Source: a virus
Virus record (IMG/VR): IMGVR_UViG_3300027503_000009
Length of the DNA: 64,000 nt
Direction: 5' to 3' (one strand)
Made by a program: the position numbers and the translations under genes. Below are positions 4,330 through 4,524 of this stretch, piece by piece. The notes below the pieces were generated by a model. It saw nothing but the letters and a program-made list of their open reading frames with translations. It was not told the DNA's origin and did not search any database. Position 1 is the first letter of the stretch. Every line of letters starts with the position of its first letter.

Positions 4330-4524
4330 TTAACCAGGAGGTTGGCTTAGAAGCAGCCATCCTTTAAAGAGTGAATCGTAGCTCCGGCCAAGACGGTTGA
4401 AAAATTATCGTGGGTATTAGAAAATCTTTGTAGAATATTAATGTCTAATACTTGGCTGCATAAAGTCTAGAAATAGATCGGCAATTCTACTATGGATTCT
4501 TTGGCGTAATAGCACACTGGTTAA
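4330..4524 (+). ncRNA. 23S rRNA L11-binding domain (H43/H44) mimic with a 131-nt insertion
   Basis: CCAGGAGGTTGGCTTAGAAGCAGCCATCCTTTAAAGAGT...GCGTAATAGCACACTGG, closed by TTAACCAG/CTGGTTAA. Confidence 0.85.

Follow-up and report, generated by a model that had tools for sequence, protein, structure and literature searches.

We analysed a 64,000-nt stretch of DNA from an uncultured freshwater phage (IMG/VR record IMGVR_UViG_3300027503_000009), hereafter the window, which encodes a family-B DNA polymerase, a DnaB-like helicase, a ribonucleotide reductase, the kinase-phosphatase Pnkp and at least 22 tRNAs. Placed among the tRNA genes, at 4330-4524 on the plus strand, is a 195-nt RNA element whose two ends together rebuild the GTPase-associated centre (GAC) of 23S rRNA, the domain at E. 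coli 1051-1108 that binds uL11 and is contacted by translation GTPases; it comprises H43, H44 and the uppermost part of H42. An insert of 131 nt splits position 1090 from 1091, and the 3′ half, GCGTAATAGCACAC, begins at 4504 (Table 1). On re-reading the sequence we found the coordinates, the closing stem, the 131-nt insertion and its closure by GAATC/GATTC and GTAG/CTAC to be as given in the first-pass annotation of this DNA. Alignment of the 5′ half to the Rfam bacterial LSU model (positions 1084-1153, 31.6 bits, E 5e-8 in a 461-nt search) likewise bears out its assignment of the flanking halves to the GAC segment of 23S rRNA. Both loops, described there as intact, are native in the window element (1067 loop UUAGAAGCA, 1095 loop GUAAUA), and all of the tertiary-core nucleotides are present: U1060, A1088, G1071, C1072, A1084/A1085, the 1082-1086 pair and the 1056-1103 purine pair. 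The absence of flanking rRNA also held, as no other rRNA match is present in the 64-kb window; the element is not contiguous with the rest of 23S, and no second copy of it was found in the window.

The element starts 3 nt past one tRNA gene and ends 2 nt ahead of another, and both are tRNA-Ser genes as annotated earlier: UGA with a long arm upstream, GCU downstream. The upstream gene was missed by ARAGORN and found with the Rfam tRNA-Sec model, and its anticodon loop identifies this match as tRNA-Ser(UGA). Including the element, eight tightly packed RNA genes lie on the same strand between 3799 and 4616. The nearest sigma-70-type promoter match upstream of the element may mark the beginning of the tRNA/RNA transcription unit, and the next lies just beyond the run of RNA genes. 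Across the tRNA array, perfect TTGACA-17-TATAAT matches occur at 224-252, 1968-1996 and 5905-5933 (+), together with four 11/12 matches, a distribution that suggests several transcription units driven by host sigma-70. The nearest record compared (G001) lacks the region, and a megablast comparison of cultured phages with 12 kb of the window gave no match.

Table 1. Positions of the RNA element, its parts and its immediate neighbours in the window.
Feature	Position	Strand	Remarks
Promoter match, sigma-70 type	1968-1996	+	TTGACA-17-TATAAT, perfect; nearest upstream of the element; consensus match only
tRNA-Ser(UGA)	4239-4326	+	Long variable arm, encoded CCA; Rfam tRNA-Sec model, 49 bits; anticodon loop CUUGAAA
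Closing stem, 5′ strand	4330-4337	+	TTAACCAG; 8 bp with 4517-4524; mimics top of H42 (E. coli ~1048-1055)
Equivalent of 23S 1056-1090	4338-4372	+	5′ half, native 1067 loop, ending ...AAAGAGT
H43 mimic (1057-1081)	4339-4363	+	Native 1067 loop UUAGAAGCA; LSU model alignment and family covariation
Junction 1082-1086 (UUAAA) and lower H44 5′ strand 1087-1090 (GAGU)	4364-4372	+	
Insert including TTTG linker, 131 nt	4373-4503	+	Between 1090 and 1091
Structured insert domain, 127 nt	4373-4499	+	Within H44
Pi1	4373-4377 / 4495-4499	+	GAATC/GATTC
Pi2	4378-4381 / 4487-4490	+	GTAG/CTAC
Pi3	4385-4390 / 4453-4458	+	
Pi4	4393-4397 / 4407-4411	+	
Pi5	4414-4421 / 4444-4451	+	Apical segment 4422-4443
Pi6	4465-4469 / 4474-4478	+	GAAA cap
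UUUG linker	4500-4503	+	Joins insert to upper H44; family hallmark UUUR
Upper H44	4504-4516	+	23S 1091-1103; native 1095 loop GCGUAAUAGC, then A1101, C1102, A1103
Closing stem, 3′ strand	4517-4524	+	CTGGTTAA; partner of 4330-4337
tRNA-Ser(GCU)	4527-4616	+	ARAGORN and Rfam
Next promoter match	4624-4652	+	Just beyond tRNA-Ser(GCU)

A family of split elements

Among cultured phages, a blastn search showed this split architecture to recur in Pseudomonas phages Milchi, pf16 and UNO-G1W1, in Aeromonas phage 4_4572 and in the Xanthomonas jumbo phage XacN1; for Pseudomonas phage Astolliot we have an equivalent blastn match whose sequence was not read. In IMG/VR, a pattern for the 5′ half retrieved 52 contigs, just one of which was true contiguous rRNA, and one built on the phage-specific 3′ half (TTTRGCGTARYAGCACAC) gave at least 119 matches. 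Pooling two independent IMG/VR scans yielded, among the matches listed, a family set of at least 103 unique elements (n = 103 in the counts below). The carriers are large tRNA-rich phages of fresh water, sea, soil and gut, where the family is common. The 3′ pattern also gave 82 matches in a collection of bacterial and archaeal genomes, with about 140 expected by chance at that pattern length, and the full element was present in 41 of the 80 bacterial or metagenome-assembled (MAG) loci read. These 41 lie mainly on MAG contigs; the isolates include Flintibacter muris, a Clostridiaceae strain and "Bacterium D16-76", and in the Flintibacter muris and Clostridiaceae loci phage tail-fibre-like and RNA-ligase genes adjoin the element.

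The first-pass annotation had proposed a search for homologues with variable inserts at the same point, and such homologues are what we found: in the 103 viral and 41 bacterial or MAG elements the insert lies invariably at 1090/1091 and ranges from 25 to 369 nt in length. No phage copy without an insert was seen among the matches listed or the bacterial and MAG loci read. The insert is followed by a UUUR linker, each position of which is U-U-U-(G/A) in 101-103 of 103 elements, a figure that one of the two search patterns imposes in part. Position 1101, which is U in bacterial rRNA, is A in 100 of 103 elements and otherwise G. It stands opposite U1090, and the pairing proposed earlier between the changed A and the U before the insertion is seen throughout the family (U-A in 99 and U-G in 3 of 103). 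Because the insert site, the UUUR linker and A1101 are shared derived characters, these sequences point to a single origin of the family rather than to repeated capture.

The family is not represented in Rfam 15 and we did not find it described in the literature searched, so that it is apparently a large, undescribed family of phage non-coding RNAs. As far as we found in that literature, there is no earlier description of a virus that encodes a functional rRNA domain as a stand-alone copy.

Contiguous 23S sequence can also occur in phage records, as in the IMG/VR contig L022. Near the end of the record of Paenibacillus phage Pd_22F (L001, MZ092003.1, ~83.4-84.1 kb) we observed an unannotated, ordinary contiguous stretch of 23S, which is not a family member and could stem from contamination by host DNA, from chimeric assembly or from genuine capture.

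Conservation of the core and of the insert

Next we considered how the family varies at paired positions. The 1058-1080 pair is formed in 103 of 103 elements with all six pair types represented, 1057-1081 alternates between A-U and C-G, and 1082-1086 is U-A, C-G or A-U. The closing stem, which is about 8-10 bp long in the family (8 bp in the window) and free in sequence, has every one of the six pair types at the positions between 1051-1108 and ~1047-1112. Position 1056-1103 is a non-canonical G.A or A.A, as in rRNA. The claim that the element is a faithful, discrete GAC mimic and not a decaying captured fragment therefore stands, with more than 100 homologues holding the fold via compensatory changes. 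One finding qualifies the earlier reading, in which stalk proteins were a possible target. Pairing of the closing stem is found in 72-100% of members down to 1047-1112 and in ~50% by 1045/1046, and this decay indicates that the RNA ends there without H42 homology; since the closing stem lacks the conserved H42 sequence, the full uL10 stalk-base site is not copied.

In the family counts (n = 103), which are inflated by the patterns used for finding members, U1060, G1071, C1072, A1084, A1085 and A1088 are invariant, as is G1087, and position 1061 varies between U, A and G, a position known to vary among rRNAs (PMC6239185). For a less biased recount we used the 5′ halves of 105 unique elements found via the 3′ pattern, with at most 11 mismatches. 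Here G1059, U1060, G1063, U1066, G1071, C1072, C1075, A1077, C1079, A1084, A1085, G1087 and A1088 are conserved at 99-100%; G1089 and U1090 reach 100%, but the filter required a GU ending. Weaker positions are A1067 (78%), G1068 (70%) and A1070 (83%). The published contacts of the uL11 C-terminal domain on rRNA comprise 1058-1060, 1062-1065, 1075-1083 and 1088 (PMC1802607), and in the 105 5′ halves this set is 84-100% conserved or covaries as pairs. A1067, a contact of both translation factors and thiostrepton, is the least conserved loop base of the family. Its variation, together with a rewritten 1067 loop in the nearest sister lineage of the window (see below), argues that the common constraint is on the fold and the uL11 surface, more than on the tips that contact factors and thiostrepton.

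Loop positions 1096/1097 and 1067/1068 differ between lineages. Furthermore, elements outside the first filter display rewritten 1067 loops and a second expansion site past A1077: in L125, L175, L176, L195, L202, L203 and L210 an extra hairpin is located in the H43 3′ strand just past A1077, besides the insert at 1090/1091.

The insert of the window element belongs to a class of its own that is common to L013, L218 and the L060 group. We aligned the four distinct sequences of this class (alignment A1) and proposed a structure of 54 pairs, for which 99.1% of cells are paired compared to 35-50% in slid controls. Double-sided changes affect six pairs: three of them belong to Pi5, and Pi4, H43 and the closing stem contribute one each. 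The 22-nt stretch at the tip of Pi5 is nearly invariant, with only its first base differing among the four sequences, and the Pi6 hairpin is deleted in L218. Collectively, these results agree with the suggestion, made from the window alone, that the insert is a second domain: in the window's clade it is conserved and structured, with compensatory changes.

The L060 lineage keeps the insert and has its 1067 loop rewritten to UUAAUGGCG, with a compensating change from C-G to A-U at 1064-1074. Identity between the window and L060 is 90% for the RNA, 91% for the neighbouring tRNA and 70% (nucleotide) or 63% (protein) for the AAA ATPase gene; the better conservation of the RNA relative to the adjacent gene indicates purifying selection on the element. 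Between L013 and the first 12 kb of the window, the sole part shared by blastn is the 196-nt element (91%). Over the element and those parts of its flanks that were read, L221 does not differ from the window. The window phage's relatives come from freshwater metagenomes, and L267 was binned with a Lake Mendota MAG.

Family-wide, the inserts are not homologous and fall into several classes, some consisting of a bare hairpin. The commonest class, to which the window does not belong, carries a CACCCC-hairpin-GGUAAGG module (30 of 103 members). A candidate 11-nt tetraloop receptor in this module was rejected, as its register, read by eye, is one nucleotide off given the covarying 3-bp hairpin. No intron, ribozyme or other Rfam model was matched in the inserts by cmscan (window region at E <= 10, five homologous loci at E <= 1), and a search of the window for antisense targets of the near-invariant insert loop returned chance 10-mers only. 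The sarcin-ricin motif AGUA-C-GNRA-G-GAA is absent from the window insert; a sarcin-ricin-loop-like motif (AGUACGGGAGGAA) was observed in only one of 103 members, L017 (IMG/VR 3300007354_000004, insert ~223). The folding z-score of the whole window element is unremarkable (-1.9), and the minimum free energy structure recovers the closing stem and H43 and does not recover the covariation-supported helices of the insert.

Genomic neighbourhood

Within 1.5 kb of the 103 elements ARAGORN predicts 279 tRNAs, all on the strand of the element and none on the opposite strand. A tRNA abuts the element (at most 30 nt away) in 43 of 103 cases, which is a lower bound because loci end early and some tRNAs are missed, as in the window. 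In other phages the element forms its own unit. In XacN1 a promoter-like site precedes it, and a 9-bp GC-rich hairpin with a T-run, read by eye, follows directly after; in L089, TTGCAT-17-TGTATAAT is located just upstream.

To look for a partner gene, we took 2,542 ORFs lying no more than 5 kb from the element in 170 loci and clustered them all against all; no family occurred in more than 12 loci. AAA ATPases are encoded near the element in 15 of 211 loci, representing about four lineages. In the window an AAA+ ATPase gene (4761-5816, +; phrog_2376, generic AAA matches only) follows the element on the same strand. In the window's clade, as in a gut-Firmicutes clade with short inserts (L127/L143/L196, L255/L264), such a gene is found 0.2-1.1 kb downstream of the element and shares its strand; in L126 it is ~4.3 kb downstream. 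This proximity may reflect synteny or a functional link.

Of 211 loci, 9 (~4%) have a Pnkp or RNA-ligase homologue no more than 5 kb from the element, and RNA-repair genes are neighbours of it in several unrelated carriers. RNA-repair-type genes of the window are the Pnkp kinase-phosphatase (5940-6863) and a metallophosphatase (7217-7750). The Flintibacter muris locus (L296) encodes a 730-aa Pnkp-RNA-ligase fusion at 2522-4714 with no tRNA nearby, and in XacN1 (L006) a 2′-5′ RNA ligase at 828-1478 is adjacent to the element. No uL11 gene was found in four complete carrier genomes, while all 14 controls were positive; any uL11 partner of the RNA would therefore be that of the host.

Possible functions of the RNA

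As judged from sequence comparison, the element is a gene for a discrete structured RNA that is under strong selection, runs in the same direction as the tRNAs and has ends that reconstitute the GAC fold. We hypothesize, with a probability that we put at roughly 0.5, that it acts as a free-standing RNA which is released by tRNA processing, binds host uL11 and serves as a decoy of the factor-binding site. Under this hypothesis the RNA would be made together with the tRNA array, RNase P acting at the downstream tRNA would set the 3′ end and leave a 2-nt tail, and 3′ maturation of the upstream tRNA would set the 5′ end. The position between tRNAs fits such release, which had been predicted from the window. 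The two ends would then fold as the compact GAC tertiary structure, with the 127-nt domain projecting from H44 via a three-way junction. Off the ribosome, this fold would bind host uL11 via the same surface as in the ribosome, and the RNA would imitate the factor-binding site and compete with ribosomes for a ligand of that site. Candidates for this ligand are uL11 itself, which is required for RelA activation, a GAC-directed host toxin or defence effector, or a translation GTPase.

Several observations weigh against this hypothesis. Contacts to factors and thiostrepton cannot be universally needed, since A1067 or the 1067 loop is changed in L060 and in about one fifth of the family. A plain uL11 sponge does not account for an obligatory insert that no member lacks and that measures 25 nt or more; taken with the loop-altered lineages, this insert argues that such a sponge is not the full explanation. 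As uL11 is abundant, stoichiometric titration would need a highly expressed RNA. Finally, the absence of a recurrent partner gene points to no pathway and counts against the explanation.

If the RNA does bind uL11 or a GAC ligand, it would represent a new phage route to manipulate or protect translation, whether by control of the stringent response, by competition with factors or as a decoy against ribosome-aimed toxins. It would also provide a natural, highly stable RNA scaffold tolerating inserts of 25-369 nt. The presence of the family in cultured Pseudomonas, Aeromonas and Xanthomonas phages makes these ideas directly testable.

A different emphasis, which we regard as possible but doubtful, is that the RNA is an anti-defence decoy: it would absorb a host effector directed against the GAC (an ADP-ribosyltransferase, nuclease, glycosidase or thiopeptide-like inhibitor) and thereby spare the ribosomes, with uL11 as an accessory. 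There is a precedent in the toxin Tre23, which ADP-ribosylates 23S H44 at 1095-1098, so that a bacterial toxin is known to modify exactly the GAC site (PMC8661411). The lineage variation at 1096/1097 and 1067/1068 would be expected in an arms race, and the neighbours in the window (the tRNA array, Pnkp and the metallophosphatase) are cargo of an anti-defence type. RNA-repair genes are located within 5 kb of the element in the 9 loci given above, with the 2′-5′ RNA ligase of XacN1 directly adjacent; however, at ~4% of loci and without a background rate this link is weak, and no anti-phage system targeting the GAC was found in the literature searched. We give a similarly tentative place to the wider proposal that the family is a counter-defence decoy sequestering an immune effector of the host, or a trigger of the stringent response, that acts at the uL11/H43-H44 site. 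Were it true, it would reveal an unrecognised class of anti-phage mechanisms aimed at this site, with the inserts specific to each lineage supplying a second function, for example effector capture or localisation.

It is also conceivable, though unlikely in our estimate, that the insert is the working part and that the GAC fold, with or without uL11, is only a stable, nuclease-resistant platform or protein handle for it. Every member has an insert; that of the window's clade combines compensatory changes with a near-invariant 22-nt loop, while the sister lineage L060 has rewritten the 1067 loop, and a separate class of inserts (30 of 103) conserves the CACCCC-hairpin-GGUAAGG module. Yet the inserts are non-homologous, with lengths of 25-369 nt and several classes, bare hairpins among them, whereas the GAC core is the invariant part. 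Most members keep the rRNA loop sequences, for which a mere platform has no need, and the window search gave no target complementarity for the near-invariant loop.

Regulation in cis, in which the element would act as a leader that binds a ribosomal protein to control the downstream gene in the manner of ribosomal-protein operon autoregulation, appears very improbable. An ORF rather than a tRNA comes next after the element in L089 and in the L060 group, but downstream neighbours are mostly tRNAs and otherwise unrelated, with no gene family exceeding 12-15 of 170-211 loci. The hairpin and T-run of XacN1, read by eye as a terminator, stand directly past the RNA, and the element does not lie in the 5′ UTR of a ribosomal-protein operon, its neighbours in the window being tRNAs, the AAA ATPase and Pnkp. 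Barely credible is a functionless captured fragment of host rRNA, or exon remnants around a mobile intron: although phage records can hold real rRNA, as in the contiguous 23S of Pd_22F and L022, this reading is already contradicted by the covariation, with double changes that preserve the helices, by the shared derived characters, the absence of flanking rRNA and a conservation far better than that of neighbouring genes, and the inserts match no intron or other Rfam family and, reaching down to 25 nt, cannot be introns.

The element can be placed among known RNAs. It shares with the 58-nt uL11/thiostrepton domain of 23S rRNA the hairpin loops, the helix register, the tertiary nucleotides and the G.A closing pair; in contrast to that domain, it is free-standing in a tRNA array without other rRNA, has the obligatory insert at 1090/1091, the UUUR linker and A1101 in place of U, and lacks the conserved H42 sequence below the closing stem. 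Off-ribosome mimics of ribosomal-protein sites on rRNA are found in the rplJ (L10) leader and in the L1-binding site of the L11 operon. Such leaders are cis-regulatory parts of cellular mRNAs, loose mimics located upstream of ribosomal-protein genes. The phage element likewise is an off-ribosome RNA imitating the binding site of a ribosomal protein, but it is a near-exact copy with no tie to a ribosomal-protein gene, and probably acts in trans. The proposed logic also resembles that of 6S RNA, a decoy that mimics an open promoter: in both, imitation of a binding site would sequester a ligand, while target and origin differ. As with GOLLD and ROOL of Rfam, we have a structured phage non-coding RNA, often near tRNAs, with no assigned function; it differs from them in its rRNA-derived core and matches neither model.

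Phage tRNA clusters are known to encode further small or variant RNAs, such as the species 1 and 2 RNAs of T4 and phage tRNAs that bypass anticodon nucleases. The element resembles these in tRNA co-transcription and in release by processing, both presumed here, and as translation-related cargo, whereas it copies an rRNA domain and has no tRNA-like fold. In the window's own array, two of the tRNAs called by ARAGORN are unusually long for their type, a 93-nt tRNA-Ile(UAU) at 3967-4059 and a 90-nt tRNA-Asn(AUU) at 3269-3358.
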